DNA of 64,000 bases from a bacterium (GTDB lineage Bacteria > Patescibacteriota > Minisyncoccia > Sungbacterales > HO2-52-23), in contig JAUYPW010000013.1 in the NCBI GenBank assembly GCA_030697525.1, forward strand, positions 2,293 to 66,292, read 5' to 3'. A model generated the notes under the pieces. It did no database searches. It was not told the origin of the DNA and saw nothing but the letters and a program-made list of their open reading frames with translations. Made by a program: the position numbers and the translations under genes. Shown piece after piece: positions 784 through 50,350 of this stretch (position 1 is the stretch's first letter; every line of letters begins with the position of its first letter).

Positions 784-3700
784 ATGATGAAAATTAAACT
801 AGAAGGTGGAGTAGGGTTGAAAGCCAAGCTTTTGACCGTTGCTACCACCATCGCTTTATCAGGAGTAGTTGCTTTTGTGCCTATGGCGGCGGTAGCCCAG
901 AGTTCATCTGATACTATCGCTCAACTGCAAGCACAGATTGCGGCTCTCAGCGCACAACTAGTTGCTTTATCTGGAGGCTCGGCAGCACCAGTGGTAGCTA
1001 GCGGCGCAAAATGTAGTTTCACCCGAAACCTAAAAGTAGGGGTCAAGGGTGATGATGTAAAATGCTTACAGCAATATCTAAACGGTGCTGGCTATGCCGT
1101 ATCGGCTAGCGGAGCAGGATCCCCCGGAAAAGAATCAACATATTTCGGAAACGCAACCAAAATGGCAGTATCAAAGTGGCAAGCGGCTATGAGTGTTAGC
1201 CCAGCAGTTGGATTCTTCGGCGCTCTTTCCAGAGCAAAGTTTGATTCAACAGTTGTGGCGGCTCCAGTAGCCCCTGCGGCTCCGGCAGTTCCCGGCACTC
1301 CTGCGGTAGCAGTACCAGCAGGATCCGGACTCACAGTAACGACAGTTGCTGATCAGCCAGCGGCGCAATTGGCTCCATTGAAAGCATCAAGACTTCCTTT
1401 CGTGAAAGCTATCTTTACAGCTTCTTCAGACGGAGACGTGACTGTTAAGTCGGTTACGGTAGAAAGACAGGGTATGGCTGACGATGATGCTTTTGATAGC
1501 ATCGTATTGCTTGATGAAGGCAATGTGCAGATCGGACTTTCCAAGACCTTAAATACCTTGCACCAAGTATTGCTTAACGAATCTTTTGTGGTAAAGGCAG
1601 GAACTTCAAAGGTTATGACAATCGGAGCAAACATGCTTTCTGCTGCCGGAACTACAAACTCTGGACAAGTAGCAAAATTATCGATTGTAAAAGTTGATGC
1701 CGGTACTACAGCAGTAAATGGCGCATTCCCAATAGTGGGTAACGGCATGACTATAAACGAAAGCTTGGACATTGGCGCGTTGGCATCTCCTTCCCGAGGC
1801 ACACTTGACCCAGGTTCTGCGAGAAGCTCTCTGGAGGTTGGTACCAAAGCATTCTATGCTTCTGGTGGCCGATGGTCAGTTGGTTCCCAAGAGCCGGTAT
1901 TGCTAGACCAAATGAGATGGTATCAATCAGGCTCGGCAGGATCTGGTGATCTTAAGAATGTAATGGTGGTAGTAAAAGACAAAGACTACCCAACAGAAGT
2001 TTCCTCGGACGGCAAATTCTATACAGCCAAATTTAATCCCGCGATTGAATTTGACAAAGGAGCTACCATGGAAATCTCTATCAAGACTGATATTGAGTCT
2101 GGTTCCGACCGAACCGTTGACTTTGATGTTCAGAAGAGGACCGATATAGTAGTTAAGGGCAAAACCTTCGGTTACTATATAATCGCAGCAAACGGAACTT
2201 CTGACCCAACGGATGACACCGGAGCATTCTCTAATGTAGAGCCTTACTACGACGCATATCAGCACACTATTTCCAAGGGTTCTCTACGATTTGAGAAAAA
2301 CAACGCAGTATCAGCTGGAAACGTTCCTATAGATGTAAATGGTGTAGAACTTGGCGCTTTTGGTCTTGAGGCCAAAGGAGAAGCGGTTCAGATTTCATCC
2401 TTTAAAGTTACCTTTACTCTGTCTGCAGGCGAGGATGGAACTCAGATGGATAATGTGGCTATCTATGATAGCAAAGGAGCCGTTGTCGCTGGTCCAAAAG
2501 ATGTTGGATCAGATGAAACAGTAACCTTTACTGACACTTGGACCGTACCGATTGGATACAACATATATAAACTCAAAGGTAAGCTGACAACTGATTTTGA
2601 GGATGCAGATACTTTGTCCGGAGCAGTTGATCCTGACGGCGATATAACAGCCAAGGGAGAGACAACCGGATTAACTCTGACAGCAAGCCCAGCCACCTCA
2701 CAGTCTATGAATACCATGACCGTAAGAGGTGCTAGCTTGAAAGTATCGGTTGCCGGAACACCATCATCCCAGAACGTAGTGCGTGGAATCACTGGATTTA
2801 CCTTTGCTAAAATTCAGTATGACGCTACTAACTCTGGTGAAGACGTGAAAGTAACTTCACAGGAATTGACAACTAGCGCCGGTAACTTAGCTATTGGTAA
2901 TAACCTAAACACTTGTCAGATGTTTGATGGAGCTACGGCTCTAAACACTGGTTCAAACATCGTAAACTTCGCGGGTACCGATTCAGACGCGGCGGATGAG
3001 GATGCGGAAGATACCTTTACTCTTGACAACAACCTCATCATTCCGAAAGGAACAGTTAAGACTGTAGATGTAAAATGTAATATAGGATCTAACGCTGTTG
3101 GTAGCGGCACATATGTAATCATGTTGTCCGACCACGATACGACCACAACCGCGTCAGCTGACACTGTAACAACCGGTAAAGATACGGGAGTAAGCATCAC
3201 TGAAACTGTAGTGGCAAGCGCTGGTCCTGTGATGACTATTCAGACCGGTGGCGAGTTGCGAGTTTCTAAAGATATTTCCAGCCCTACTGCACGACACGGA
3301 ATTGCTGGAAAGACTGATGTTGTACTGGCTATATTGAAACTTGAGTCTGATTATGAAGCTCTAAAACTTGATAGACTCGCTTTAACCTTGTCTTCCTCTA
3401 CGGCTTCCACAACCGACCTTTCCAAGGTTACGTTGTGGGACGGAGCAACTAAGGTTGGAGAGGCAGTATTTACCGGAACAGACACTAGAGCAACCTCAAC
3501 TCTTACCGCTGACTTCATAGTTCCGAAAGATTCTTACAAATTGCTCACCATTAAAGGTGACTTGGCAACACTAGGTCTAAACTTGCCAGGCACCAGAGGC
3601 GCTTTGGTAGGGGTAAACTATGACGGTGAAGCAACCACTACTACCAGAGCCACAGGTCAGGCATCAGGTATACAGGTCAATCCGGCAAATGGGAAAGATA

Positions 3701-4440
3701 CAGTGGCAGATGGAGTACGATTAGTAAGAACCCTGCCTACCCTTGAAAGACTTGCTGTTCCGTCAAATACCCTGTCCAACGGTACTATGACTATGTTTCG
3801 CTTCAAGGTAACGGCTGATGCCGCAGGCGATGTAGGGCTCTACAAATTCACGTTTATTGTATCGTCGTCATCACTGACAGGAACATCATCAAACTTCAGT
3901 TTGTATGGCTACTCTGATTCATCCTTCTCGGTAAACGCATACGCCTCCAACCCGCTAAACTCCAATGATGTTGACTGCGTAGGATCATCTTCGGTTGAGC
4001 TTGGTTCAGATACGAACGATACTTGTACGGCAGACAATCAGACAAGCACCCTAACGAGTCAGTCGGCCTCTACATCAGAGGTAGTTATCTACTTTGACCC
4101 GGTTAAGAACACAGGAGCAAATCCAACAGCAGAGGCGATAAACATTCCCGCTGGACAATCCAGATACTTTGAGCTCCGTGGTATATTCTCCTCTACTGTG
4201 GCTGGAGAATCTATCTCTGTGAACCTTGGCGGTGACGCCGGTCTAGATGTAGATACCAATCTTGTTGGAAGAGTAACAGCTGATACGGTTGATAAAGATG
4301 TTGCAACGAACTATGACAACTTCATCTGGTCGCCTAACACCACCACCACGGTTGCAACAACAACCAATGACTGGATAAACGGCTACCTGCTACCTGGACT
4401 ACCAACAACCGGAATGTCCTCACAGACCTTCTCGAAGTAA
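784..4440 (+). CDS. very large secreted surface (S-layer-like) protein with signal peptide, N-terminal coiled coil and a PG_binding_1-like domain, then about 1000 aa of Thr/Ser/Val/Ala/Gly-rich beta-rich sequence
   Basis: 1218-aa ORF. It has an N-terminal hydrophobic segment (LLTVATTIALSGVVAFVPMAAVA) and a coiled coil (IAQLQAQIAALSAQLVAL). The PG-binding-like motif is CLQQYLNGAGY...GNATKMAVSKWQ. The rest is a low-Cys, T/S/G-rich body. Terminators flank it on both sides. Confidence 0.8.
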   Translation: MMKIKLEGGVGLKAKLLTVATTIALSGVVAFVPMAAVAQSSSDTIAQLQAQIAALSAQLVALSGGSAAPVVASGAKCSFTRNLKVGVKGDDVKCLQQYLNGAGYAVSASGAGSPGKESTYFGNATKMAVSKWQAAMSVSPAVGFFGALSRAKFDSTVVAAPVAPAAPAVPGTPAVAVPAGSGLTVTTVADQPAAQLAPLKASRLPFVKAIFTASSDGDVTVKSVTVERQGMADDDAFDSIVLLDEGNVQIGLSKTLNTLHQVLLNESFVVKAGTSKVMTIGANMLSAAGTTNSGQVAKLSIVKVDAGTTAVNGAFPIVGNGMTINESLDIGALASPSRGTLDPGSARSSLEVGTKAFYASGGRWSVGSQEPVLLDQMRWYQSGSAGSGDLKNVMVVVKDKDYPTEVSSDGKFYTAKFNPAIEFDKGATMEISIKTDIESGSDRTVDFDVQKRTDIVVKGKTFGYYIIAANGTSDPTDDTGAFSNVEPYYDAYQHTISKGSLRFEKNNAVSAGNVPIDVNGVELGAFGLEAKGEAVQISSFKVTFTLSAGEDGTQMDNVAIYDSKGAVVAGPKDVGSDETVTFTDTWTVPIGYNIYKLKGKLTTDFEDADTLSGAVDPDGDITAKGETTGLTLTASPATSQSMNTMTVRGASLKVSVAGTPSSQNVVRGITGFTFAKIQYDATNSGEDVKVTSQELTTSAGNLAIGNNLNTCQMFDGATALNTGSNIVNFAGTDSDAADEDAEDTFTLDNNLIIPKGTVKTVDVKCNIGSNAVGSGTYVIMLSDHDTTTTASADTVTTGKDTGVSITETVVASAGPVMTIQTGGELRVSKDISSPTARHGIAGKTDVVLAILKLESDYEALKLDRLALTLSSSTASTTDLSKVTLWDGATKVGEAVFTGTDTRATSTLTADFIVPKDSYKLLTIKGDLATLGLNLPGTRGALVGVNYDGEATTTTRATGQASGIQVNPANGKDTVADGVRLVRTLPTLERLAVPSNTLSNGTMTMFRFKVTADAAGDVGLYKFTFIVSSSSLTGTSSNFSLYGYSDSSFSVNAYASNPLNSNDVDCVGSSSVELGSDTNDTCTADNQTSTLTSQSASTSEVVIYFDPVKNTGANPTAEAINIPAGQSRYFELRGIFSSTVAGESISVNLGGDAGLDVDTNLVGRVTADTVDKDVATNYDNFIWSPNTTTTVATTTNDWINGYLLPGLPTTGMSSQTFSK

Positions 4441-4464
4441 TAAGAATCATCCTTGTGGATTCGC

Positions 4465-4496
4465 AAAAGCCCCGTTTGAACGGGGCTTTTGTTTTG
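4465..4496. terminator. rho-independent terminator after the large surface protein gene
   Basis: AAAAGCCCCG-tttgaa-CGGGGCTTTTGTTTT. Confidence 0.7.
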
Positions 4497-4512
4497 ATAT
4501 TAGATGGTATTT

Positions 4513-4554
4513 ATAAACTTAAAATCCGGCATAGTGCCGGATTTTAAGTTATCC
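4513..4554. terminator. long palindromic bidirectional terminator element (conserved A/T arms ATAAACTTAAAA / TTTTAAGTTATCC)
   Basis: AACTTAAAATCCGGCA-tag-TGCCGGATTTTAAGTT is a perfect palindrome. A DnaA-box-like TTATCCCCA lies at 4549-4557. Confidence 0.55.
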
Positions 4555-4662
4555 CCAGCGTCGCAACAGCTCAACCAAGTGGACTCGCTGTTGCTCCCTA
4601 AAACCCCTCGGTTTTAGTATTTCCGCCACGGAAAACTCCCGTTTTCCGACCCTTTCCCAAAC

Positions 4663-4712
4663 CTGCAGATAACTTAAAACCCCGAATATTCGGGGTTTTA
4701 AGTTATCCACAG
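4663..4712. terminator. long palindromic bidirectional terminator element, 40-nt perfect palindrome
   Basis: GATAACTTAAAACCCCGAAT|ATTCGGGGTTTTAAGTTATC spans 4668-4707. A perfect DnaA box TTATCCACA lies at 4703-4711. Confidence 0.55.
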
Positions 4713-4854
4713 CTACTCCACTTTACTATTTGTAAGAGTAATATAGAATTGAAGTAAATAAAAAAACTTATCCACTGTAGTTACTAAAAACTACTGTGGC
4801 AATACAAATATGGTCATGTTTGTATTCGCTTAATTAATAATAAAAACAATATTT

Positions 4855-5808
4855 ATGAAAAAAAGGTTTCTATCAAGTCATTTTTCTTTTTTCTTGGCTT
4901 TGGTAATCGGTTTGGCATTAGCGGTGGGAGCGTCGGTTTGGGCTACCACTATCGGAACTAACATTTCCGGTACAGGCACTTTAGATATAACTGGCGCTAC
5001 AACCCTTAATGGAGCTGTAACTATAGGAGATGCGGCGGCGGATGCATTTACTATTAATAGCAATAGCGTGACTTTTGCTAATGCTGGTACTAGTACTATT
5101 CCATCAGCAAGCGCCGTTTCTTGGGCAATAGCAACCTCATCAGCAGACATGCCGTTCTTTAGATTTGATACTTCTAACACCAAAATCGGTATTGCAAGTG
5201 GTACGCCAATAGTTACCTTTTCTGTGGGCGGTGCTGGCAATATTTATGCAGCAGGAGGTTTAGGTGTCGGACAAGCAACTACTACCGCAGGTGTTATTGA
5301 AAATACTGGTAATGTTCTTTTTGGTGATGCCGCAGGAGACATAGTTAGGCTTAACTCTGCCAGTCTTATATTCAACAATGCAGGAACCACAACTATTCCT
5401 GCTGCCAGTGGCCCGAGTTGGGCAATTGCTACGTCGTCAGCAAATATTCCACTTGTTAGATATGATACCTCCAATAGCCGAATTGGTATCGCAAGTGGCA
5501 CGCCAATAACTACCCTTTCTATTGGCGGTGCCGGCAATGTTTATGCGGCAGGAGGTTTGGGTGTTGGGCAGGCTACAACAACAGCAGGAGTTATAGAGAC
5601 ATCTTCGGGACCATCACTTTTTGGTGGGGATGCGTTTGTTGTTGGCTCGTCAGGTACAACTACAATGAGAGTAGAATCAACAGCGAACGGCAGGGGAGGA
5701 TGTATTCAGATTGAGTCTCCCGGTGCTCTTGCTGGGGCTGGTTCATACTTTCATATGTACGCAACAACTACGGGTGCGGCCTACTGGCAGACAGGCGCTT
5801 GTAAATAA
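4855..5808 (+). CDS. secreted Gly/Thr/Ala-rich repeat protein (two ~101-aa internal tandem repeats; C-terminal Cys pair)
   Basis: It has a signal peptide/TM (FFLALVIGLALAVGASVWA). The repeat unit ...NAGT.TIP.AS..SWAIATSSA..P..R.DTSN..IGIASGTPI.T.S.GGAGN.YAAGGLGVGQATTTAGVIE... occurs twice, at about nt 5026-5328 and 5329-5635. The protein ends ...GGCIQIE...YWQTGACK. Confidence 0.7.
   Translation: MKKRFLSSHFSFFLALVIGLALAVGASVWATTIGTNISGTGTLDITGATTLNGAVTIGDAAADAFTINSNSVTFANAGTSTIPSASAVSWAIATSSADMPFFRFDTSNTKIGIASGTPIVTFSVGGAGNIYAAGGLGVGQATTTAGVIENTGNVLFGDAAGDIVRLNSASLIFNNAGTTTIPAASGPSWAIATSSANIPLVRYDTSNSRIGIASGTPITTLSIGGAGNVYAAGGLGVGQATTTAGVIETSSGPSLFGGDAFVVGSSGTTTMRVESTANGRGGCIQIESPGALAGAGSYFHMYATTTGAAYWQTGACK
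5026..5635 (+). repeat. in-frame ~303-nt tandem duplication (2 copies, ~80% nt identity) inside the 4855..5808 CDS
   Basis: GGAGGTTTAGGTGTCGGACAAGCAACTACTACCGCAGGTGTTATTGAAA (5255-5303) matches GGAGGTTTGGGTGTTGGGCAGGCTACAACAACAGCAGGAGTTATAGAGA (5552-5600). Confidence 0.6.
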
Positions 5809-5834
5809 TTCTCTTACTTAATTGTATTTAATTT

Positions 5835-6824
5835 ATGAAACGAATACTCACGTTTCTTATAACCGCCTTTTTACCCCTTACAGCTATGGCGGCAAATGAG
5901 GTAAGCTTAACTTCCAATGTAACTCTGGTACTGCCTTCAGATAGTTCGGAATACACTCTTTTAAATGGGAGCACGTTTGATTCTTTAATAGTCAATAATA
6001 CCAATTTCACTTTTGGAATGTCGGCTGGATCCAGCGTTGAGATAACGTCAGCCGATAAGAAGAAGCTTACTAACTCCTTATTAGCAACTATTCAATGTGA
6101 AAGTACTCAATCGAGAATATTTATGTCTAAGCCCTCGGGTGCTACGACTGAAGATATAACCGTTACCCCTTCTGGTACCTGTTCTTCGACCGGTGGAAGT
6201 GGCGGTGGTGGAGCTTCAAGCGGAGGTAGCAGTGGTAGTAGTGGAGGTGGGAGTAGTAGTGGCGGTAGTAGTGCGCCCGCGCCTTTGCCGGCCACGGAAA
6301 CAGTGGATAAGGTTGCCCAATTAAAAGCCCAAATAGCGAGCGTCCAGGCCGCTATAGCCCAAAAGCTTGCCCAAAAAGGAGTTCAAACAAAATATGTAGC
6401 GCCAGCCTTTGGTGTATTTGCCCGGAGTTTAGCTCCCGGGCAGAGGGATGATGAAATAAAAAGATTGCAAGAACTTCTGGCTACGGATAAAAGTATCTAT
6501 CCCGAAGGTAAGGTTACTGGATATTATGGGCCAGCCACACTCAATGCAGTTAAAAGATTTCAGAAGAAATATGGTATTTCTCAAGTTGGGAAAGTTGGAC
6601 CGCAGACCATTTCTAAACTAAACGAAGTTTTTGGGGGAACTATTCCAGTTGTTGTTCCCGAAACAAAACCAGCAACACAAGCTTCCGTTATTTCATCTCC
6701 AGCTTCCGCGGCGGTGAGCACTCAAGTCCAACAAATCCAAGAACAAATTAAAGCAATCCAGGCCAAACTGATTCAGGAGCAAATTAAACAAATTCAAGAA
6801 AAAATTAAATCCCTACAAAAATAA
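5835..6824 (+). CDS. secreted protein: signal peptide, N-terminal domain, Gly/Ser-rich linker, coiled coil, PG_binding_1 domain, C-terminal QEQIK coiled-coil motif
   Basis: The signal peptide is MKRILTFLITAFLPLTAMAA. A (GGS)n low-complexity linker lies at nt ~6175-6290. The PG-binding motif is DDEIKRLQELLA...VTGYYGPATLNAVKRFQKKYGI. The protein ends QQIQEQIKAIQAKLIQEQIKQIQEKIKSLQK*. Confidence 0.75.
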   Translation: MKRILTFLITAFLPLTAMAANEVSLTSNVTLVLPSDSSEYTLLNGSTFDSLIVNNTNFTFGMSAGSSVEITSADKKKLTNSLLATIQCESTQSRIFMSKPSGATTEDITVTPSGTCSSTGGSGGGGASSGGSSGSSGGGSSSGGSSAPAPLPATETVDKVAQLKAQIASVQAAIAQKLAQKGVQTKYVAPAFGVFARSLAPGQRDDEIKRLQELLATDKSIYPEGKVTGYYGPATLNAVKRFQKKYGISQVGKVGPQTISKLNEVFGGTIPVVVPETKPATQASVISSPASAAVSTQVQQIQEQIKAIQAKLIQEQIKQIQEKIKSLQK

Positions 6825-7516
6825 TGTCAAAAAAACTTTTAATGGTTTTGGGGGTCATAGTGGTGCTGGGGTTTGTTTCTTTTGCTACCGGACTTGCCAG
6901 CATATCTTCTATTCAGGAGCAATTAAAATCAGTACAAGTTAAACTGATAGGTGAGCAGATAAAGCTGTTGCAAGAAAAAATACTAGGTGTGGGTAAAGAA
7001 AAGCCCAAACCTGTGGTGGTGGAGGCCGAACCGGTAAAAAGCAAAGAAGAGCTGTCTAAAAGCCTGGAGGAGCAGATAAAACAGCTGGAGGGGGTAGTCA
7101 GAGCCTTGCGGCCAAAAGCTATGGACGAAGAGGTGCTAAGACTTGAGAAAAAAATCACAGAAATAAGTTTGGCCATCGGAGCCGCCGAGGGTGAAAAACT
7201 GGTGGATTTGCAGAAGGAATTTAACAAAGCGGTTACAGATTACAATAAGCTTAGTTCGGAAGTCAGAAAAGCCCTAGATGAGAACATAAAGGCTAAACAG
7301 GCAGACGCCATAAGGGAACAAATTAGGACTTTGAAGGAAAAAGTCAGCTTATTGCCAACACCCGGGTCTTATGACAAAGCGGCTGTAGCGAAAGATGAAA
7401 GCAAAAAGGCCAGCTTACAGATACTGCAAGAACAAATCAAATCTGTAAAAGCAAAACTACTAGCCGAACAGATTAAGGCAGTTCAGGAGAAAATAGATCA
7501 GTTGAAAACAAAGTAA
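6824..7516 (+). CDS. membrane-anchored coiled-coil protein sharing the QEQIK...EQIK..QEKI motif at both termini
   Basis: The start is coupled to the upstream stop as TAATG. The protein has an N-terminal TM (LLMVLGVIVVLGFVSFATGL) and is highly charged with heptad periodicity. The N-terminal motif is IQEQLKSVQVKLIGEQIKLLQEKI and the C-terminal motif is ILQEQIKSVKAKLLAEQIKAVQEKIDQLKTK*. A terminator follows. Confidence 0.7.
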   Translation: MSKKLLMVLGVIVVLGFVSFATGLASISSIQEQLKSVQVKLIGEQIKLLQEKILGVGKEKPKPVVVEAEPVKSKEELSKSLEEQIKQLEGVVRALRPKAMDEEVLRLEKKITEISLAIGAAEGEKLVDLQKEFNKAVTDYNKLSSEVRKALDENIKAKQADAIREQIRTLKEKVSLLPTPGSYDKAAVAKDESKKASLQILQEQIKSVKAKLLAEQIKAVQEKIDQLKTK

Positions 7517-7523
7517 TTTCTTT

Positions 7524-7550
7524 CAACACCCCGCCATCGGGGTGTTTTGG
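7524..7550 (+). terminator. rho-independent terminator
   Basis: AACACCCCG-ccatc-GGGGTGTTTTGG lies immediately after the 6824..7516 stop. Confidence 0.7.
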
Positions 7551-7573
7551 TATTGTAGTGATTTGTATTAAAG

Positions 7574-8611
7574 TTGTATAATGGTGATATGAGTAAAAAT
7601 CTGTTTAAGTTTTTATGTATAATTGCTGTATTATTTATCATACCATCAGTAAGTTTTGGGTTTTTCGAACGCGATCTCTATTTCGGACTCAAAAACAGCT
7701 CGGAGGTAAGTGGCCTGCAGGAATTTTTACAAAAACAGGGAGTTTATTCGGGGCCTGTCAATGGCAATTTCTTTTCTCTTACTCGTGAAGGGGTTAAAAA
7801 ATTTCAGATTAAGGAAAGCATAAAACCAGCCCTTGGTTATTTTGGGTCTATGACCCGAGCGGCTGCTAATCGCCTCGTTGTTGGGACGGGTGAGGCTACA
7901 AAAAAAGCTGATTTGATTGCTACGCTGCAAGTGCAGATCAAAGCCCTGAACGATCAATTACAGCAACTTCAGAAGCAACAGCAAAAAGAAAAGGAGGAGG
8001 AATTGGCAAAAACATCGGAGATTCCTGCCGTACCAGAAACACCTTCTCTCGCACCAGTTCCTCCACCACCAGCTTTGGAAATTAGCGGAGAAAAAAACCA
8101 GACCTTTCCTACTAGTTATACAAGTCCTCTTAAAATAGGCGATTTTACCATTGCAAATCGCACTGGCAATGATATCCTCTTTGCCCAGATTAAAATTAAG
8201 ATTACTGACCAGATGGATTCTTTTCTTAACCGCAACAAAGAAATACAGATTCTATTGAGAAAAGGTTCTTGGTTCTCCGACACCTTAATCTCAAAAACAG
8301 CGCATACTTTTAGTTCTTTGGTGGTTCCAGAAGGCTCATCGCATATCCAATTTGCGAACCTGTCTTATCCCATCTTAATAAAAAACGGAGAAGAAGTGAC
8401 CACTGGCCTGTGGATTGAAAATTTTGATTATGTTACCAGAGGTTCTCTTAAGTTTGAATTCTACGAAGCGCAAGCCACTACTGCTATAAGTCCTAAGGGA
8501 GGGTTTAACTTTACTTTGAGCAGGGTAAACACTACCGCATTAGGGGTGGTAAATAATTTAAGCAGTATACTGGGCTCACTTAATTCCTTACTTAAGCAGT
8601 TAGAAAAATGA
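7574..8611 (+). CDS. secreted protein with PG_binding_1-like domain, coiled coil, Pro-rich linker and C-terminal beta-rich domain
   Basis: It has a signal/TM segment (LFKFLCIIAVLFIIPSVSFG). The PG-binding-like motif is LQEFLQKQGVYSGPVNGNFFSLTREGVKKFQ. The coiled coil is ATLQVQIKALNDQLQQLQKQQQKEKEE, followed by the Pro-rich PAVPETPSLAPVPPPPA. Confidence 0.7.
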   Translation: MYNGDMSKNLFKFLCIIAVLFIIPSVSFGFFERDLYFGLKNSSEVSGLQEFLQKQGVYSGPVNGNFFSLTREGVKKFQIKESIKPALGYFGSMTRAAANRLVVGTGEATKKADLIATLQVQIKALNDQLQQLQKQQQKEKEEELAKTSEIPAVPETPSLAPVPPPPALEISGEKNQTFPTSYTSPLKIGDFTIANRTGNDILFAQIKIKITDQMDSFLNRNKEIQILLRKGSWFSDTLISKTAHTFSSLVVPEGSSHIQFANLSYPILIKNGEEVTTGLWIENFDYVTRGSLKFEFYEAQATTAISPKGGFNFTLSRVNTTALGVVNNLSSILGSLNSLLKQLEK

Positions 8612-8675
8612 TCTTCTCTTTGGAATTAAGGACCTATACTTGAAAAGTGTAGCCTTTTAGGCTAGTATAGTTTTT

Positions 8676-9476
8676 ATGGAAAAACTGAAGAATAGAAACA
8701 TCTTAATACTCCTTGGGGTAATCGTTGTTGCTGGCTTAGTTATACTGTTATTTAAGAAAAAAGAAGCTCTGGATACTACCCCGACCGTTGTCAATACCCC
8801 TGTAATTACTTCAACTGATTCAGTGCCCAAAAAACAGGACACAGTTACTGCCAGTGGCGCTTCTAATAATCCTAAGTATACTGGCCGTGATCCGGAAGAA
8901 GTTCATCCTAATCCTGACGATGTTAAAATTTTTTCTGAAAAAAGAAAAGAAGAAATTTATAGCGGTATTACCGTGCATGGGCGAAACGTAAAAGAAAATC
9001 CAGATTTTTTAAATGGCTGGTTGGAGCTTGGTATATTGAAAAAAGTGATTGGCGACTATGAAGGAGCACGGGACGCATGGGAATATGCAAATATTATAAG
9101 ACCGGGAAATTCAATTTCATTTTCCAATCTAGGGGAGCTTTATTGGCGATATCTGCCTAATTACACCAAGTCAGAAGCAAATTTTAAAACCTCTATTAAA
9201 AACAAATCAGACGATCCTTCTGTTTATATCTCCTTGTCCGACCTGTATTTCTACTCCTATGCGGAAAAAAAAGACTTTGCGGATGATATTCTTTTAGAAG
9301 GTACAAAAGCCAATCCCGAAGACACCAACCTTGTCCGAGCTTTAGCCGCTTTGTATGAGCGGCAAAAAGAATATACGAAAGCAAAAGAGTGGTGGACTAA
9401 GCTTCTGGAAAAAGAACCAAATGATGCGGAAATCACTGCCCACATCAAAGGGTTAGGGGAAAAGATTAATCCCTAG
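8676..9476 (+). CDS. membrane-anchored TPR-repeat protein
   Basis: It has an N-terminal TM (ILILLGVIVVAGLVILLF). The C-terminal half carries TPR-like helices (NGWLELGILKKVIGDYEGARDAWEYA...; LVRALAALYERQKEYTKAKEWWTKLLEKEPNDAE). Confidence 0.65.
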   Translation: MEKLKNRNILILLGVIVVAGLVILLFKKKEALDTTPTVVNTPVITSTDSVPKKQDTVTASGASNNPKYTGRDPEEVHPNPDDVKIFSEKRKEEIYSGITVHGRNVKENPDFLNGWLELGILKKVIGDYEGARDAWEYANIIRPGNSISFSNLGELYWRYLPNYTKSEANFKTSIKNKSDDPSVYISLSDLYFYSYAEKKDFADDILLEGTKANPEDTNLVRALAALYERQKEYTKAKEWWTKLLEKEPNDAEITAHIKGLGEKINP

Positions 9477-9477
9477 T

Positions 9478-10875
9478 ATGTCATATTATCGATTCTTGTT
9501 GCTGTTACCATTCCTCCTGCTTCCGGCAGGAGGAATTTTTGCGTCTGGCAACATACAGTTCAGTGAGGTTGTGTGGATGGGTATGTTGCCACGCGAGGGC
9601 GAATCAAGCCAGGCCGCGTCTAATAATGAATGGATAGAATTATATAATCCCACAGATCAGGAAATAAACTTGACCGGCTGGAAAATAACTTCGTCCGATG
9701 GATCACCAAATATCATTTTATCTGGCAGTATAAAGTCTCAAAGCTATTTTTTACTTGAAAGGGGAAATGACGATGTTTTGCCAAATTTCAAAGCTGATCA
9801 GATATACTCTTTTACAAACAATGCTCTTTCTAATTCTGGCGAGCACCTTTTCTTAAAAGATGCCGCTAGTAGCACGGTAGATGAAATAAATGCTTCATCC
9901 GGATGGCTGGCGGGTGATAACACCACTAAAGAGACTATGCAGAAATCCGGCAGTAATTGGGTGACGGCTCTAGCTACTCCAAAGTCGGGATGGGTTAACG
10001 CGATAACCAATTCTGAAAACAGCAGCACATCTCAAACCGCATCTACGCAATCTACTATCTCCCAGTCGTCTACTATCTACCCATCTATAAAAGCCTCCGC
10101 CGGAGAAGATAAAATAACAATTGCCGGATCGGAAGTTGATTTTGTTGGGCAGGCATGGAACTCAAACAAAGAACCCCTGGAAGATACCAGATTTTGGTGG
10201 AATTTTGGAGACGGAGAATCAAAAGAGGGGAAATCCATATCTCATATTTTCCAAATCCCAGGTAGATATACGGTTGGTTTGCATATCTCCAACGGTTCTT
10301 ATGCGGCTTCCGATTATGCTTATATAGAAGTAATAGCAAACAAGCTTAAGATTATAGACGTTTTACTAGGTGAGAAGGGTTATTTTAAACTGTATAACCC
10401 TTCTGATTTTCTCTTGGATATTGGCGGGTGGTTGGTGGAATCTGGGTCCGGAAAGCAGTTTGTAATTCCTACAAAAACCAAAATAGGACCAATGGCCGAA
10501 ATCGCTTTGGCCAATTCTCTTACCAAGATTTTTCTGGAAGAAAAAACGTTGGAAGCCAAAATGCGTTACCCCAATGGGCTTCTTGCTCTTGAATGGAAAA
10601 CAAATAATACGCCAGTTCAACATCCAGCCGGTACTATTATTCAAACTCCGGCGATCTATAATCAAACACCCAAAATTTCTAAAATTATCAGAGACGAATC
10701 TCTTCCCGAAGCTTATTTAACCCGAGTTGTATCAACTACTTCTGAAATTGCAGAGATAAATAAAACTACACCAGGAAAACTAAAGATATCTCCGTTTTGG
10801 TTGGCCGGAATTTTAAGTTTAATAACAGCTGTCGGATATATATTAGTAAGCAAATGGAAAAACCAAAAGTTATAA
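9478..10875 (+). CDS. surface protein with two lamin-tail (LTD) domains flanking a PKD-like domain; C-terminal TM anchor
   Basis: LTD signatures are SEVVWMG...NEWIELYNPTDQEINLTGWKITSSDG...YFLLERG and KGYFKLYNPSDFLLDIGGWLVESG. The PKD-like segment is FWWNFGDGESKEGKSISHIFQIPGRYTVGLHISNG. The C-terminal TM is ISPFWLAGILSLITAVGYILV. Confidence 0.7.
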   Translation: MSYYRFLLLLPFLLLPAGGIFASGNIQFSEVVWMGMLPREGESSQAASNNEWIELYNPTDQEINLTGWKITSSDGSPNIILSGSIKSQSYFLLERGNDDVLPNFKADQIYSFTNNALSNSGEHLFLKDAASSTVDEINASSGWLAGDNTTKETMQKSGSNWVTALATPKSGWVNAITNSENSSTSQTASTQSTISQSSTIYPSIKASAGEDKITIAGSEVDFVGQAWNSNKEPLEDTRFWWNFGDGESKEGKSISHIFQIPGRYTVGLHISNGSYAASDYAYIEVIANKLKIIDVLLGEKGYFKLYNPSDFLLDIGGWLVESGSGKQFVIPTKTKIGPMAEIALANSLTKIFLEEKTLEAKMRYPNGLLALEWKTNNTPVQHPAGTIIQTPAIYNQTPKISKIIRDESLPEAYLTRVVSTTSEIAEINKTTPGKLKISPFWLAGILSLITAVGYILVSKWKNQKL

Positions 10876-37175: not shown

Positions 37176-39971
37176 ATGAATAAACCAAAGACAAAAATAA
37201 TAGTTACTTTGGGTCCTTCCACCAAAGAAGAGAACGATCTTCAAAGACTTAAAGACCGGGAAGTTGATTTTGTCAGAGTCAATATGTCCCACTCTAGTCT
37301 AGAAGATCTTTCTTATTTTTTGAAGTTGGCTAAAAAGGTTGGAATTCCTTTTATAATAGATACCGAGGGTTCGCAGATACGTAGCGGAGATTTGGCAGAG
37401 GACAATCTTTATATACCAGAAAATAAAACTATACAAATACATGCCGAACCGATAATAGGTGATGTAGAAAAAATATGTTTGCGCCCAGGAATTGTTGTAC
37501 AGCAACTTGAACCCGGAGATTTAATTTACATTGATTTTGATACGCTTATTTTGCGGGTGACAGACACTTCAACCTTGGCATCCGGCTTTATCACCGCCAA
37601 AGCCCTTGCTGGAGGATCGCTGGGAAGAAATAAGGGGGTAATTGTGGACTCTTCTTTGGGTAAAAAATTGGATCTTCCCACTCTATCTCCTAAAGACTAT
37701 CAATCAATTGAGCTTGGTTTGCAAGAGGGGGTTGAACATATTGCCGCCTCATTTATGAGGTCTGGGGAATCTGTAGAAGAAGTTCGCATAGCTACCCAGA
37801 ACAAGATGAAAATAATTTCTAAGATAGAATGTCTGGACTCTCTGAAAAATCTAGACAGTATTATTGAAAAATCTGACTATTTACTGATAGACAGAGGAGA
37901 TTTGAGCAAGGAAATCCCAATTGAAAAAATTCCGCTAACGCAAAAAATAATTCTTGCTAAGGCCAAGGAAAGAAATAAGGGAGTTTTTGTTGCCACTAAT
38001 TTACTGGAAACTATGGTTGGTAAGAAAAAGCCTACTAGGGCGGAAGCTCATGATGTAATAGCTACCATTCTTGATGGGGCGTCGGGTGTGGCTCTTTCTG
38101 CGGAAACAGCCATTGGTAAGTATCCATTGGAATGCGTGAATATGATGCACAAACTAATTAATCAAGCCTCACTTATTGAGTCGGATGGGTTGTTGGAAAA
38201 ACCCTCCTCACAAATTCTAAACCGTTTAAACCCAGAAAAATATTGGTTTGAAGGAAGCGCTTCATATTTGAACGACCCCCATGGGGGTGTTTTGGTGGAT
38301 AGGACTACCACAAAAAACTACTCTAAAGATTATCTCGCCTCTTTACCGGGAATACTTTTAAGCAATGAACTTCAAATGGATGTTGAGCAGATAGGAATAG
38401 GTACATACAGCCCACTGGAGGGATTTATGCTTGAAAAGGACTTTCTATCAGTACTAAACTCCATGAGGATCGCCAATGGTGTTATTTGGCCGTTACCGAT
38501 TATCCTTGGGGTTTCTCAAGAATTGGCCAATCAATTGACGGAGGGTGGGGACGTCTCCTTGCTTGATGCCAAAGGAGAAGTAATATCTATTTTACATCTA
38601 GAACAAAAATACACATTCAGTTGGCAGAATACCTGTTTGAAGTTGTATGGCACTATTGATCAAGAGCATCCGGGGGTCAGAATGATAAAGGACACGCCTC
38701 CGGTATTATTGGGCGGTAAAATTACTCTTCTGCGAAGAAGAAATTCTCCCACAAGTTCTTATGAACTAACTCCTCGCCAAGCCAGGCGCATTTTTGATGA
38801 GCGGGGCTGGAAAAGAGTGGTCGGTTTTCATACCAGAAATGTGTTGCACCGAAGTCACGAATATATACAAATGAAAGCGTTGGAGGATAGCAGGAGCGAT
38901 GGTCTTTTTGTTCATCCTGTTGTAGGCAAGAAAAAAATAGGCGACTTCAATGCCGAATACATTATGAAAGCCTACGAGATTATGAGCGAACTATTTTATC
39001 CTGAAAATAAAGTGGTGCTAGGAGCTTTCGCTACGTACTCCCGCTATGCGGGACCGCGGGAGGCTGTATTTACGGCTCTGTGCCGGAAAAATTTCGGCTG
39101 TACACATTTTATCGTAGGACGAGATCATACTGGGGTTGGAACATTTTATCATCCGCAGGCATCCCATGATATTTTTGATAGCCTTCCTAATCTCGGCATA
39201 TCCATAATAAAGTTTGATGAAATAATTTATTCTAAAAAGTACAATTCCCATTTATCTGACAGAGAGAGCAGTGATCACTCCGAGGAAGAGAAACTAAGAC
39301 TAAGCGGGACGGAAGCGAGGAAAATGCTTGAAAGAAATGTAGCCCCTCCCGAGTGGTTTATGAGAAAGGAGATATCACAGATGCTTATTGAAGCTCTGCA
39401 AAAGGGGGAAGAAGTTTTTGTAAAAGAAAAGTATGAACTAAAAAATTCAGGCAAAGTAATTTGGTTTACCGGTTTGAGCGGTTCAGGAAAGACGACACTT
39501 GCCGGGCTATTACAGAAATCTTTGGAAGCTTCCGGGAAAAAAGTTAAGGCCATCGATGGGGATGAAATACGCAACACTGTCGCCAAAAATTTAGGTTTTA
39601 CCAGGGAAGACATCAGGACCAATAACCGCCTAATTGCCGAACTTGCCAAAAAGGAAGGGGTTATCCATGACTATGTCTTGGTGTCAGTAATTTCTCCATT
39701 TGCGGAAGATAGGAGGCTCGCCCGTTCTATTGTTGGTGATAATTTTTTAGAGGTATATGTGAACTGTCCTCTACAGAAGTGTATGGATCGGGACCCTAAG
39801 GGTATTTATAAAAAAGCTCTGGCTGGAGAGCGAGAAAAACTCATTGGTATGCCAGATGCCCTACCTTATGAGATACCTACCTCTTCAGAGATAGAGGTGA
39901 AAACAGCGGAGTCGGGCATATATCAGAATTTAGGGATTATATTGGATTTCTTAAATAGTAAGAGTTATTAA
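37176..39971 (+). CDS. trifunctional fusion: pyruvate-kinase-like barrel domain + ATP sulfurylase (PUA-like and catalytic domains) + APS kinase; a PAPS synthase with an N-terminal PK-like domain
   Basis: aa 1-330 are PK-like (KTKIIVTLGPST...VRVNMSHSS...IDTEGSQIRSG; DRGDLSKEIPIEKIPLTQK; NLLETMV; DGASGVALSAETAIGKYPLE). aa ~360-700 are ATP sulfurylase (VVGFHTRNVLHRSHEYIQ; IVGRDHTGVG). aa ~760-931 are APS kinase (VIWFTGLSGSGKTTLAGLL). Confidence 0.85.
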   Translation: MNKPKTKIIVTLGPSTKEENDLQRLKDREVDFVRVNMSHSSLEDLSYFLKLAKKVGIPFIIDTEGSQIRSGDLAEDNLYIPENKTIQIHAEPIIGDVEKICLRPGIVVQQLEPGDLIYIDFDTLILRVTDTSTLASGFITAKALAGGSLGRNKGVIVDSSLGKKLDLPTLSPKDYQSIELGLQEGVEHIAASFMRSGESVEEVRIATQNKMKIISKIECLDSLKNLDSIIEKSDYLLIDRGDLSKEIPIEKIPLTQKIILAKAKERNKGVFVATNLLETMVGKKKPTRAEAHDVIATILDGASGVALSAETAIGKYPLECVNMMHKLINQASLIESDGLLEKPSSQILNRLNPEKYWFEGSASYLNDPHGGVLVDRTTTKNYSKDYLASLPGILLSNELQMDVEQIGIGTYSPLEGFMLEKDFLSVLNSMRIANGVIWPLPIILGVSQELANQLTEGGDVSLLDAKGEVISILHLEQKYTFSWQNTCLKLYGTIDQEHPGVRMIKDTPPVLLGGKITLLRRRNSPTSSYELTPRQARRIFDERGWKRVVGFHTRNVLHRSHEYIQMKALEDSRSDGLFVHPVVGKKKIGDFNAEYIMKAYEIMSELFYPENKVVLGAFATYSRYAGPREAVFTALCRKNFGCTHFIVGRDHTGVGTFYHPQASHDIFDSLPNLGISIIKFDEIIYSKKYNSHLSDRESSDHSEEEKLRLSGTEARKMLERNVAPPEWFMRKEISQMLIEALQKGEEVFVKEKYELKNSGKVIWFTGLSGSGKTTLAGLLQKSLEASGKKVKAIDGDEIRNTVAKNLGFTREDIRTNNRLIAELAKKEGVIHDYVLVSVISPFAEDRRLARSIVGDNFLEVYVNCPLQKCMDRDPKGIYKKALAGEREKLIGMPDALPYEIPTSSEIEVKTAESGIYQNLGIILDFLNSKSY

Positions 39972-39973
39972 AT

Positions 39974-40951
39974 ATGTCAAAAATTTCAGTCGGGAAGAGA
40001 AAATACTTGGTAGAGAATTTGCTTCTGCTTGATGGTATAACCAGATCGGGCAAATTTCTGCTCGCTAATATCATTTCATCTTTCTCAAATATTGAACCAG
40101 TCCAATATTATGGGCTGCTTGAACATATTCCTTTTTTTGAGAAATTCGGTTTGATGGATAAGGATACTTCTAAAGAACTACTACAATGTGAGATAGACTT
40201 TCATTGCTACGAAACGCTGATCGGTAGAAATCTCAATCACCGAAAAACAGACAAATCCTCCATCTATCATAATCCCCAGAGTCAGTCATATATACAAAGA
40301 TCGGGAGAGAAAAATATAGATCTACTCTTGAAAAATTTCCATAATAAAAAGCCATACAGTTTTTTCATAACCCACGAAATTCTGCCGCATATAAATATCT
40401 ATCTAGAAGCATTTCCTAAAATAAAAATTATCGTAATTGAGCGAAATGCCATAGATCTTGTTTATTCGTGGTGGAGGAGGGGTATTGGAACAAGAATTGG
40501 GAATGATCCTATTATGTTCCAAATACCACTTCGCAATAATAATGGTCCGGCAGCGCCTTGGTACGCGCAATCATGGGGTAAAAAATATCATTCGCTTTCA
40601 GAGGTAGACCGCATTATATTTTCTATCAAAACACTCAAAGAGTTATACCAAAAGGCTTATCGCAAATTGACTAGTGAACAAAGAAAAAAGATTTTATTTA
40701 TTGATTACGACAATTTACTTATAAATCCGGATAAGGTTACTGAGGCAATATCCAGTTTTTTACAATTGAAAAAAAGTTCGACAGAAATAAAAAATGTTCT
40801 AAAAAAAGAACATTTGCCCAATTCCGGATCAATTAAGACAAGATCGGCTAGAACCGAAGAGTTAAGGACCGTAGCATCAAAAAAATATCTCCTGTATCTA
40901 CTAAAATTAGAAAAGGAAAACGCTTCTTTGGAAAAATTTTATAATTTTTAG
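39974..40951 (+). CDS. putative PAPS-dependent sulfotransferase
   Basis: The 5'-PSB-like P-loop is LDGITRSGKFLLANII and the 3'-PB-like motif is IIVIERNAIDLVYSWW, comparable to sulfotransferase PKSGTT and RNP.D..VS motifs. It sits immediately after the PAPS synthase, 2 nt apart. Confidence 0.55.
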   Translation: MSKISVGKRKYLVENLLLLDGITRSGKFLLANIISSFSNIEPVQYYGLLEHIPFFEKFGLMDKDTSKELLQCEIDFHCYETLIGRNLNHRKTDKSSIYHNPQSQSYIQRSGEKNIDLLLKNFHNKKPYSFFITHEILPHINIYLEAFPKIKIIVIERNAIDLVYSWWRRGIGTRIGNDPIMFQIPLRNNNGPAAPWYAQSWGKKYHSLSEVDRIIFSIKTLKELYQKAYRKLTSEQRKKILFIDYDNLLINPDKVTEAISSFLQLKKSSTEIKNVLKKEHLPNSGSIKTRSARTEELRTVASKKYLLYLLKLEKENASLEKFYNF

Positions 40952-46139: not shown

Positions 46140-46868
46140 ATGAAAAAATTTACCCAAAAAGGTCTAGTCATAATTCCAGCTCGGGGCGGATCCAAAAGGA
46201 TAAAAAATAAAAATATAAAAAATTTTCTTGGCGATCCTCTTATTGCTTACACAATCAAGCAGGCAAAACAATTAAAAATGGCTGATAGGGTTATTGTTGA
46301 CACTGATTCACCCCAAATAGCCAAGGTAGCTAGGCGTTATGGTGCGGAAGTGCCATTTTTACGTCCGGCGAATCTTGCCCAAGATAATTCTTTAGTGATT
46401 AATAGTGTTATTTATATCCTGCAGAGATTAAAGAAAGAGGAAAATTATATACCAGATTATATTATTATACTTCAAACAACCTCACCACTTCGAGAGATGA
46501 AAGATATTGAGAGTTGTTGGAAATTATTTAAAGATACGGACGCAACGACAGTGCTTACGGTTTGCGAAACTCATCCGAGATCTTATCGGCTTACTCGCGA
46601 AAATAATTTAATTTTACTTAACGGCTCTGAGAAGTATTCCACCAATGTACAAGCTTGGAATAAGCGCTATATTCTCAACGGTTGTTTCGTATATTTTGTA
46701 GAAACAGCAGCTTTACTAAGAGAGAAGGTTATCATAACCAGAAAAACTAAGGCTGTTGTATGCGACAAGTGGCGTTCGGTTGATCTAGATAATCCGGAAG
46801 ATTGGGTAATCGCGGAATTGCTTTATAGAGAGAGAAAGTCTGTTACTAAGAAGATAAAATCCATATGA
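46140..46868 (+). CDS. CMP-nonulosonic acid synthetase (acylneuraminate cytidylyltransferase family; NeuA/LegF/PseF-like)
   Basis: LVIIPARGGSKRIKNKNIKNFLGDPLIAYTI matches the CMP-NeuAc synthetase N-terminal motif. Confidence 0.75.
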   Translation: MKKFTQKGLVIIPARGGSKRIKNKNIKNFLGDPLIAYTIKQAKQLKMADRVIVDTDSPQIAKVARRYGAEVPFLRPANLAQDNSLVINSVIYILQRLKKEENYIPDYIIILQTTSPLREMKDIESCWKLFKDTDATTVLTVCETHPRSYRLTRENNLILLNGSEKYSTNVQAWNKRYILNGCFVYFVETAALLREKVIITRKTKAVVCDKWRSVDLDNPEDWVIAELLYRERKSVTKKIKSI

Positions 46869-47842: not shown

Positions 47843-47873
47843 TTACTTCCATTTTTAAGCAGGGGTTATAATA

Positions 47874-48145
47874 GGAGACCAGGATTCGAACTAACATCAA
47901 TTTAGTGAATCAATTCCCGTCCCAGATTCAAGGCGCGAGAAGCGAAGTGTATCTTTAGATACACGAGCGACGAGAAACGCAGAAGATGGGCGGGAATTGA
48001 TTCACCCGAAGGGAAGAGAGAATTTGGCCAATTTCTTCGTCACTCCTCGGAGAGGTGCTGGTCAGCACGATCTCCTTGTCGTTCCTAGAACTTGGCTCAA
48101 ATTCTCTCTTCTAAACTCTGATGCTAGTTCGAATCCTGGTCTCCA
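47874..48145. repeat. 272-nt nested perfect-palindrome element (22-bp terminal inverted repeats plus at least five internal perfect hairpins) directly abutting the neuB-like start codon
   Basis: The terminal inverted repeats are GGAGACCAGGATTCGAACTAAC and GCTAGTTCGAATCCTGGTCTCC. Internal perfect pairs are GTGAATCAATTCCCG/CGGGAATTGATTCAC, GTGTATCT-tt-AGATACAC, GAAGAGAGAATTTG/CAAATTCTCTCTTC, CCTC-gga-GAGG and GTGCTG-gt-CAGCAC. Confidence 0.6.
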
Positions 48146-48151
48146 AAGTAT

Positions 48152-50345: not shown

Positions 50346-50350
50346 GTTAT

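Follow-up and report, generated by a model that had tools for sequence, protein, structure and literature searches.

The bacteria of the CPR account for a large part of bacterial diversity, and the proteins that build their envelopes are essentially unknown. In Candidatus Sungbacteria (Parcubacteria, CPR), a conserved cluster of cell-envelope and glycan genes has as its head positions 784 to 10875 of a 64-kb stretch of DNA (here called the window), which raises the question of how the secreted proteins encoded there might be held on the wall and attached to one another. The coordinates of genes A to E and of all ORFs were verified. Synteny of the whole cluster, glycosyltransferases included, is kept across related loci: gene B lies directly 5' of gene C in every one of them, genes F and G are syntenic, and GT4 glycosyltransferases follow G on its 3' side. 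Our literature search found no description of proteins of the A-to-E type. The features that concern the wall-binding proteins and their neighbors are as follows.

784..4440, forward strand: gene A, 1218 aa, signal peptide at aa 1-38
910-972 (aa 43-63), forward strand: A/Q-rich heptad helix of A, DTIAQLQAQIAALSAQLVALS, before the PG_binding_1 domain
1048-1191 (aa 89-136), forward strand: PG_binding_1 domain of A
About aa 170 to 1218 of A: acidic, Ser/Thr-rich (21%) body of predicted tandem β-sandwich domains
4463..4492, forward strand: strong intrinsic terminator 3' of A, a 13-bp stem with seven G-C pairs and then a T run
4855..5808, forward strand: gene B, 317 aa, signal peptide; secreted, Gly/Thr/Ala-rich and internally duplicated, with a C-terminal Cys pair; no match in a Pfam search
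5835..6824, forward strand: gene C, 329 aa, signal peptide at aa 1-19
aa 20-119 of C: small β domain with a conserved Cys pair
aa 120-146 of C: Gly/Ser linker
aa 158-181 of C: A/Q-rich helix, DKVAQLKAQIASVQAAIAQKLAQK, before the PG_binding_1 domain
6447-6620 (aa 205-262), forward strand: PG_binding_1 domain of C, followed by a Pro-rich linker and the C-terminal helix
7589..8611, forward strand: gene E, 340 aa from the ATG at 7589, signal peptide, β-rich body
7697-7825, forward strand: PG_binding_1 domain of E, with a Q-rich helix, DLIATLQVQIKALNDQLQQLQKQ, after it at 7910-7984
8676..9476, forward strand: gene F, signal-anchored TPR protein
9478..10875, forward strand: gene G, signal peptide, Lamin-tail domain, PKD domain, and a C-terminal TM helix with a basic tail

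The element common to A, C, and E is PG_binding_1 (PF01471), which scores 30.1 bits in A (aa 89-136), 45.0 bits in C (aa 205-262), and 26.3 bits in E (aa 42-84), in each case above the Pfam gathering cutoff of 23 bits; iterative searching of the 148 ORFs of the window found it in these three proteins only. As a preliminary description of this DNA had proposed, each domain lies beside a short coiled coil, a heptad helix with hydrophobic residues at a regular spacing of 3 to 4 (at aa 113-137 in E). Other parts of that description need correction. The three proteins are not consecutive, since B (4855-5808) separates A from C and D separates C from E, and the claim that the domain is fused to unrelated C-terminal bodies fails for C, whose non-PGB body is N-terminal. 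The grouping of the three as a paralogous family is weak: identity between the helix-and-PGB modules of A and C is 30% (118 aa), that between A and E is 32% (81 aa), and the pairwise comparison of C with E gave no significant similarity.

A, C, and E would be secreted and held on the peptidoglycan via PG_binding_1, and the heptad helix beside the domain probably oligomerizes it, which would increase avidity. Non-covalent binding to peptidoglycan is the role to be expected here, the closest parallels being the known wall-targeting domains of this family (1lbu, phage phiKZ gp144, and SleB); the PGB modules of the Streptomyces albus Zn D-Ala-D-Ala carboxypeptidase (1lbu), 3bkh, and 5tv7 are matched by the profile of C. 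Unlike in known PG_binding_1 proteins, the domain in A, C, and E comes without a hydrolase, is flanked by short, probably oligomerizing helices, and is fused to structural β domains.

A different helix connects C to the gene that follows it. The features of this junction are as follows.

6735..6821 (aa 301-329), forward strand: C-terminal helix of C, two units, IQEQIKAIQAKL and IQEQIKQIQEKI, then KSLQK
6824..7516, forward strand: gene D, 230 aa, its start overlapping the stop codon of C (TAATG)
aa 5-25 of D: hydrophobic N-terminus ending in an invariant Ala, either a signal anchor or a cleavable signal peptide
6911..6991 (aa 30-56), forward strand: N-terminal helix copy in D, IQEQLKSVQVKLIGEQIKLLQEKILGV
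aa 77-177 of D: conserved helical core with invariant L95 and P97
7424..7513 (aa 201-230), forward strand: C-terminal helix copy in D, LQEQIKSVKAKLLAEQIKAVQEKIDQLKTK
7525..7546, forward strand: terminator-like hairpin at the end of the C-D (possibly B-C-D) unit
7567-7572, forward strand: TATAAT, after the hairpin and ahead of gene E

This terminal helix, 29 to 30 aa long, was found at all three sites at which it had been described, namely the C-terminus of C and both ends of D, where it frames the order N-terminal helix, Pro-rich linker, core, linker, and C-terminal helix. Its copies had been called nearly identical heptad repeats. They are indeed similar, but only 64 to 68% identical over 25 residues, in register, in this genome, and each is built from a pair of 12-residue units, the register skipping at positions 12/13 and hydrophobic residues falling at positions 1, 5, 8, 12, 13, 17, 20, 24, and 27. 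The DNA copies, with a unit of 36 nt, are only 67 to 76% identical, which places the conservation at the protein level; identity of only about 70% also argues against recent gene conversion.

Helices that are short and rich in Q, K, I, and E, as these are, could resemble one another through chance or composition, as low-complexity coiled coils. However, the matches are specific. Scanned for the motif in all six frames, the 64-kb window returned C and D only, plus one spurious antisense match, and phmmer with the last 34 aa of C against the 148 window ORFs found, besides C itself, only D (E = 9.7e-18), so that the motif does not behave as a low-complexity feature common to unrelated proteins. 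The search was extended to other CPR loci with a profile of the D family: across about 570 kb and 47 loci it hit only D orthologues and the C just upstream of them, at E values of 1e-10 to 5e-7, and the matches to C always ran through the terminal helix, with profile positions 180-231 covering the C tail. Further, the hydrophobic pattern and the 12/13 skip are common to all three helices in eight genomes, and helix position and register are kept in orthologues that are 34 to 47% identical overall. These specificity tests contradict the compositional explanation, which we now regard as scarcely credible.

Conservation within C leads to the same region. Mean identity is 68% in the tail, 61% in the PGB domain, and 27% in the adjacent linker, making the tail the most conserved segment of the protein, and D is found only directly downstream of a C with the two-unit tail; together, these observations bear out the view of the helix as a specific, selected feature linking both genes. 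The proposed translational coupling was likewise verified in the TAATG overlap of the C stop and the D start. Among 12 informative loci, eight have both the tail and D (the window, L002, L007, L008, L010, L011, L043, and L044), and in these the start of D lies -1 to +15 nt downstream of C; the other four have neither, and C there carries another tail or no tail (L005, L013, L026, and L045); none is discordant. An exact test by hand on the 8 versus 4 loci gave a p value of about 0.002, ignoring phylogeny, and the pattern may reflect no more than membership of a single clade.

Based on these sequence patterns, we favor, at a probability of roughly 0.5, the hypothesis that a docking helix joins C to D within a conserved Sungbacteria envelope and glycan operon. 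The evidence in its favor is that C and D are coupled, that a terminator-like hairpin closes the pair, that the tail is conserved, and that co-occurrence is strict. The tail of C is homologous to both terminal helices of D, and the three would associate in register as a mixed bundle of helices and so dock wall-bound C onto D; from the surface, C would then consist of the β domain, the Gly/Ser linker, the PGB domain, the Pro-rich linker, and the docking helix. The feature is real, undescribed, and clade-restricted; we only infer its function, and with it the physical contact of C and D, its stoichiometry, and its location.

Alternatively, each helix might homo-oligomerize its own protein, as is presumably the case for other Q-rich tails of PG-binding proteins in the CPR, with the likeness between C and D reflecting an old local duplication of a helix-coding segment between neighbors and no complex being formed. 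Ile-rich core positions favor self-assembling bundles, and the cores of these helices are Ile-rich. Further, 44 of 120 C-like proteins have another kind of short Q-rich helix at their end, with which no D family is associated, indicating that tails of this kind can work without a D-like partner. Nor are the helices more alike within than between genomes (identity of 0.46 versus 0.45, 0.48 versus 0.47, and 0.38 versus 0.34 for same-genome and different-genome pairs), the lineage of the window excepted, and hence they give no signal of co-evolution. However, independent self-association fits poorly with the strict co-occurrence of D and the two-unit tail, with a tail that is more conserved than the PGB domain, with translational coupling, and with the retention of the unusual 12/13 skip in all three helices, and we consider it unlikely.

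The D proteins themselves, judged from their sequences, are a small, unannotated, and unnamed new family. D has no match in Pfam or NCBIfam and no relative in the PDB. We identified 33 representatives (about 30 clusters) among 1.84e9 proteins, of which 25 are full length at 222 to 245 aa, and a metagenome scan with a narrower D alignment added two 1.2-kb contigs only. Members have a hydrophobic N-terminus ending in Ala, the two-unit helix at both ends, and a central invariant L..P motif, and they are encoded directly 3' of a C-type PGB protein with a matching helix. Kinship with the bitopic leucine-zipper proteins DivIC, FtsB, and FtsL finds no backing in the Pfam and NCBIfam models, which D does not match, or in the gene context of envelope and glycan genes. 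The AF2 model of D alone (7-sequence alignment; pLDDT 48.9) has an unreliable tertiary fold and usable secondary structure only; it lends a heteromer no structural support, and the 12/13 register skip, which is atypical of a continuous coiled coil, speaks against docking.

How D is placed in the envelope depends on its N-terminus, which reads xGFA and then xIS, the invariant Ala closing the hydrophobic segment and polar residues coming next. By its sequence, this Ala could be a signal-peptidase site, in which case the presumed membrane anchor would be a signal peptide that is removed, leaving D secreted with a helix at both mature termini. D might then be a bivalent connector or a head-to-tail polymer, chaining N-terminal to C-terminal helices or bridging two C proteins in a wall-zone mesh pinned by C. 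Such processing would agree with the Ala and the polar residues behind it, with the Gly at -3 in most D members, with the AXA-like cleavage sites of all the neighbors A, B, C, and E, and with the lack of Cys in D, which is therefore not a lipoprotein. However, 4 of 27 members break the -3/-1 rule with E, N, Q, or D at position -3, and a hydrophobic run of 16 to 18 residues could span the membrane; we regard a secreted connector or polymer as improbable. The docking hypothesis accommodates either state: with an uncleaved N-terminus, the module would tie together membrane, wall, and surface domain, and with a cleaved one, D would act in the wall zone as a soluble, bivalent connector. Its most specific version, in which the helix of C and the two of D form, around their Ile-rich core, a 1:1 parallel three-helix bundle on the outer face of the membrane, giving a monoderm CPR cell a membrane-peptidoglycan-surface tether functionally analogous to Lpp or OmpM and derived from a split, triplicated helix, is a long shot.

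Known envelope tethers provide partial parallels. OmpM, Deinococcus SlpA, and Thermotoga Ompα combine SLH and coiled-coil elements, and the logic of a wall-binding domain beside a coiled coil that links the wall to another envelope layer is the same. Unlike in those systems, whose stalks run to 100 residues or more, the helices here span 20 to 30, anchor and wall binder are separate polypeptides with a helix in common, and the host is presumed monoderm. Pfam found no SLH domain in A to G, and the sequences show no long continuous coiled-coil stalk on a TM or β-barrel chain, the predicted helices of D being broken by Pro-rich linkers. The Braun lipoprotein Lpp is a small helical envelope protein that links the membrane to peptidoglycan, and D is likewise small and helical and would link membrane to wall. 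Covalent attachment of the Lpp type was rejected, as D lacks a Cys/lipobox and its C-terminal residue is not a fixed Lys, varying among K, R, P, and Q; unlike in Lpp, wall binding would be left to the PGB domain of C. In comparison with cohesin-dockerin pairs, the docking element would be an α-helix on both partners rather than a Ca-binding dockerin, and no dockerin or cohesin Pfam domains were found. If the docking is real, it would be a simple two-component coupling of envelope layers and would supply protein engineering with a compact heterospecific helix pair; otherwise, the annotation of this region as a surface and glycan island of Sungbacteria is still of use.

The largest protein, A, raises the separate possibility of an S-layer role. 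It has at least 736 full-length homologues (41 to 62% identity, 1150 to 1260 aa), which occur in Candidatus Sungbacteria MAGs and are named only "peptidoglycan-binding protein." AF2 modeled aa 170-1218 as all β (pLDDT 87.5), with generic fold matches only (Ig-like, cohesin, and Calx-β), among which Foldseek listed the archaeal S-layer protein 8c8o; on this model, A is a string of β-sandwich domains anchored to peptidoglycan. We considered whether A serves as the cell's S-layer protein, with B to G as accessory or anchoring subunits and the C-D helix pair serving attachment. Like S-layer proteins, A is large, secreted (with a signal peptide), acidic (124 D+E versus 89 K+R), rich in Ser and Thr (21%), Cys-poor, and built of multiple β domains behind a wall-binding N-terminus. 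The uniform length of its homologues, the all-β multidomain model with 8c8o among its matches, and the strong terminator that A has to itself (found downstream at 4463-4492, as the preliminary description had indicated) also point in this direction. Codon bias is raised only mildly, with an ENC of 49.4 for A and 45.5 for B, the lowest in the window, versus 54.6 ± 3.1 in 47 other genes. In addition, A heads a large glycan cluster that includes a flippase and GT-C enzymes, and S-layer proteins have been predicted in Patescibacteria in one preprint (10.1101/2024.05.28.596244). The YfhO-like, PMT_2-like, and flippase genes in its context permit glycosylation of A, making it a candidate substrate only. 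A shows no clear homology to a known S-layer protein, and Pfam finds in it PG_binding_1 only and no known S-layer anchor (SLH, CWB2, or similar). An S-layer role is possible, and the full arrangement with B to G as its subunits is rather doubtful. As a widely conserved, probably peptidoglycan-anchored surface protein of 1200 aa, A is nevertheless an envelope candidate, and with family D and the C-D pairing helix it is among the testable candidates that this cluster supplies.

Some smaller features complete the picture. The TTATCCACA boxes adjoining gene A were considered as an oriC and rejected, as GC skew rises monotonically and related loci carry the motif in many of their intergenic regions. 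Rfam and tRNA scans found no RNA genes in the 64-kb window. Gene E is missing from several loci that contain D, and its start is more likely the ATG at 7589 than the TTG at 7574 chosen by the ORF lister; it has also been called as a protein of 340 aa.

Seven genes, all in the same direction, lie within 784-10875 at the head of the window, and their order, A-B-C-D-(E)-F-G-glycosyltransferases, is repeated in diverged relatives. No published description of the A-G proteins was found in the literature.

Genes at the head of the window
784-4440, +, A, 1218 aa, PG_binding_1 (PGB) protein
4855-5808, +, B, 317 aa
5835-6824, +, C, 329 aa, PGB protein
6824-7516, +, D, 230 aa, small unannotated protein
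7574 or, more likely, 7589 to 8611, +, E, PGB protein
8676-9476, +, F, TPR repeats (Pfam)
9478-10875, +, G, Lamin-tail and PKD domains (Pfam)

Signal-peptide-like N-termini with AXA-type ends were observed in A, B, C, and E. A has its own strong terminator, and a terminator-like hairpin (7525-7546) lies 3' of D. The longest E open reading frame begins at TTG 7574, 2 nt past a TATAAT box (7567-7572); the more likely start is ATG 7589 (MSKNLFKF...), and the Logan assembly gene call, of 340 aa, agrees with it. At their C-termini, G (10780-10875 in the window) and its orthologues in four related loci (L002, L008, L010, and L011) carry a hydrophobic helix with a short basic tail behind it. This arrangement looks like a sorting signal, but none of them showed a conserved motif of the LPXTG, PEP, or PGF type ahead of the helix.

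PG_binding_1 scored above the Pfam gathering threshold in A, C, and E, and an iterated search confined the domain to these three among the 148 window ORFs; B and D have no Pfam domain, and NCBIfam contributed nothing further. Each PGB domain adjoins a helix of some 20 residues that is rich in A/Q and has its hydrophobic residues at a regular 3-4 spacing; this helix precedes the domain in A (aa 43-63) and C (aa 158-181) and follows it in E (aa 113-137), and its positions are at least 90% conserved in the A family. The module shared by these proteins according to the preliminary description is present as domain plus helix, but the three copies are only loosely related: A matches C at 30% identity over 118 aa and E at 32% over 81 aa, and the C-E similarity is not significant. 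The PGB domains themselves are ordinary members of PF01471.

C and D are linked by a helix of 29 to 30 residues, built of two 12-residue units (36-nt spacing) and present in three copies.

Copies of the shared helix
6735-6821, +, extreme C-terminus of C, IQEQIKAIQAKLIQEQIKQIQEKIKSLQK
6911-6991, +, directly after the hydrophobic N-terminus of D
7424-7513, +, extreme C-terminus of D

In this genome the copies are 64-68% identical in register and their DNA is just 67-76% identical, so it is the protein sequence that has been kept. The hydrophobic positions (1, 5, 8, 12, 13, 17, 20, 24, and 27) define two short heptad-like segments, separated by a skip of one residue at 12/13; the motif was correctly placed at the ends of C and D in the preliminary description, but it is not one continuous heptad repeat. 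Position 14 of the N-terminal D copy is Gly, with Arg in three of eight genomes compared. The proposed translational coupling is borne out by a TAATG overlap of the C stop and D start.

The shared helix is more than low complexity. A six-frame motif scan of the window matched C and D only, and phmmer with the last 34 residues of C against the 148 window ORFs returned only D (E = 9.7e-18) and C itself, which contradicts a common low-complexity feature within the window. Further, a profile built from 27 D-family proteins and run against all ORFs of at least 60 aa on both strands of 47 loci (ca. 570 kb) matched D orthologues and C proteins immediately upstream of a D, and no others; its positions 180-231 always fell on the last ca. 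50 residues of C (E = 1e-10 to 5e-7), and C-like proteins from D-less loci were unmatched.

The C tail and D also occur together. In eight independent loci (the window, L002, L007, L008, L010, L011, L043, and L044) a C with the two-unit tail is followed at -1 to +15 nt by the start of a D, and in four (L005, with one unit only, L013, L026, and L045) a C-like gene with a different or no tail lacks D, leaving none of the 12 judged loci discordant; L012 (D present, C tail masked by N runs) and L023 and L046 (which end too early) were left out. Among 120 C-family proteins, 40 have the two-unit tail, 44 end in a different short Q-rich helix, and 13 have an 'LPxW/F[LM]RLT' tail, while at least 7 end after the PGB domain and 16 are unclassified. 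In proteins of the two-unit group, no region of C is better conserved than the tail: identity to the window C averages 68% there, 61% in the PGB domain, 41% in the N-terminal domain, and 27% in the adjacent linker. In the 13 proteins (P0197, P0199, P0205, P0210, P0213, P0214, P0216, P0218, P0226, and others) the terminal helix is replaced by 'S(S/T)xxELPWFLRLTPAPAPR' or the variants LPFWMRLTP and LPAWMRLTP, and another group has 'GLTPDPETTGGFKYR...C..C' at its end; such tails may be other docking or sorting peptides.

Because of this helix specificity, co-occurrence, conservation, and translational coupling, we propose, at roughly even odds, that C and D form a module in which the terminal helix of C would pack in register with the homologous helices of D, thereby docking wall-bound C onto D. 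Against a C-D heteromer stand the lack of a within-genome co-evolution signal between the helices, the solitary Q-rich tails of many related proteins, and the consideration that tail and D may co-occur as a single clade character. The C-D feature itself is real, specific, conserved, and restricted to a Sungbacteria sub-lineage. The overall logic of the proposed docking resembles that of the SLH-coiled-coil tethers (OmpM, SlpA, and Ompα) and of Lpp, although C-D has neither SLH domain nor long stalk, and neither lipobox nor invariant terminal Lys; a new, docking-helix variant of envelope tethering is plausible.

D represents a new small protein family, without relatives in Pfam, NCBIfam, or PDB, and does not belong to FtsB/FtsL/DivIC. 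When 1.84 billion representative proteins were searched exhaustively with HMMER, 33 matched, 25 of them at full length (222-245 aa), which makes D much rarer than the A family. The family alignment opens with a hydrophobic N-terminus whose last residue is an invariant Ala; after it come the N helix, a linker rich in Pro, a conserved helical core in which Leu95 and Pro97 are invariant, another linker, and the C helix. An AF2 model of D alone, reliable for secondary structure only, predicts helices at 27-53, 74-95, 98-120, 124-175, and 192-229. The hydrophobic N-terminus may be the membrane anchor earlier ascribed to D. The invariant Ala resembles a signal-peptidase site, most members having Gly at -3, but 4 of 27 members have E, N, Q, or D there.

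A is acidic, with 21% Ser+Thr, and belongs to a family of uniform length (1150-1260 aa; 41-62% identical), with at least 736 members named, where a name is given, 'peptidoglycan-binding protein' of Candidatus Sungbacteria/Sungiibacteriota. Its acidic Ser/Thr-rich body, terminator, and codon bias (ENC of 49.4, and 45.5 for B, versus 54.6 ± 3.1 for other genes; lower is stronger) fit an abundant surface protein; these features do not separate the S-layer protein suggested earlier from a wall-anchored fibril or adhesin. In one preprint, S-layer proteins are predicted for Patescibacteria, without detail for comparison (10.1101/2024.05.28.596244). No gene of the window shows stronger codon bias than B, whose product may match A in abundance; B is secreted, internally duplicated, and Gly/Thr/Ala-rich, with a conserved two-Cys C-terminal segment, 'GGCIQ...YAT...G.C'. 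Its orthologues (ca. 300 to ca. 580 aa) have two different C-terminal types, and B directly precedes C in every case.

A very large glycan island takes up the remainder of the window; it also encodes GT4 and GT2 transferases, GtrA, methyltransferases, a radical SAM enzyme, GDP-mannose dehydratase, and a YfhO-like GT-C-type membrane enzyme.

Selected features of the glycan island
37176-39971, PAPS-synthesis fusion, 931 aa (pyruvate-kinase barrel, PUA-like domain, ATP sulfurylase, APS kinase)
39974-40951, sulfotransferase gene, next to the fusion
46140-54262, complete-looking nonulosonic-acid (legionaminic or pseudaminic-type) pathway: cytidylyltransferase, NeuB, UDP-GlcNAc 2-epimerase, PglD-like acetyltransferase, DegT aminotransferase, PseB/PglF-like dehydratase
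54259-55758, Wzx-type flippase
55755-57182, -, PMT_2-like GT-C-type membrane enzyme

With such genes, the flippase and GT-C-type enzymes among them, a wall polymer or the Ser/Thr-rich proteins described above could possibly undergo extracytoplasmic glycosylation, and the sulfurylase/kinase fusion with its sulfotransferase suggests that this CPR bacterium sulfates a surface glycan.

The motif AGTTATCCACA, which includes the DnaA-box consensus TTATCCACA, has four copies in the window, where about one would be expected; all four are intergenic and lie in the two regions on either side of A.

Window sites of AGTTATCCACA
211-221, +
310-320, -
4547-4557, +
4701-4711, +

Related loci have it at 2599 (L002), 14430 (L005), 9428 (L007), 4510/4566 (L012), 4680/4736 (L043), and 4375 (L044), and at seven sites in L026. 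Copies of GTTATCCACA in related Parcubacteria loci are intergenic in 28 of 30 cases, and motif copies often follow directly on a terminator hairpin and precede a -35/-10-like pair; with this placement, an origin of replication is disfavoured, and AGTTATCCACA looks more like an element that serves, across the clade, upstream of promoters or in regulator binding.
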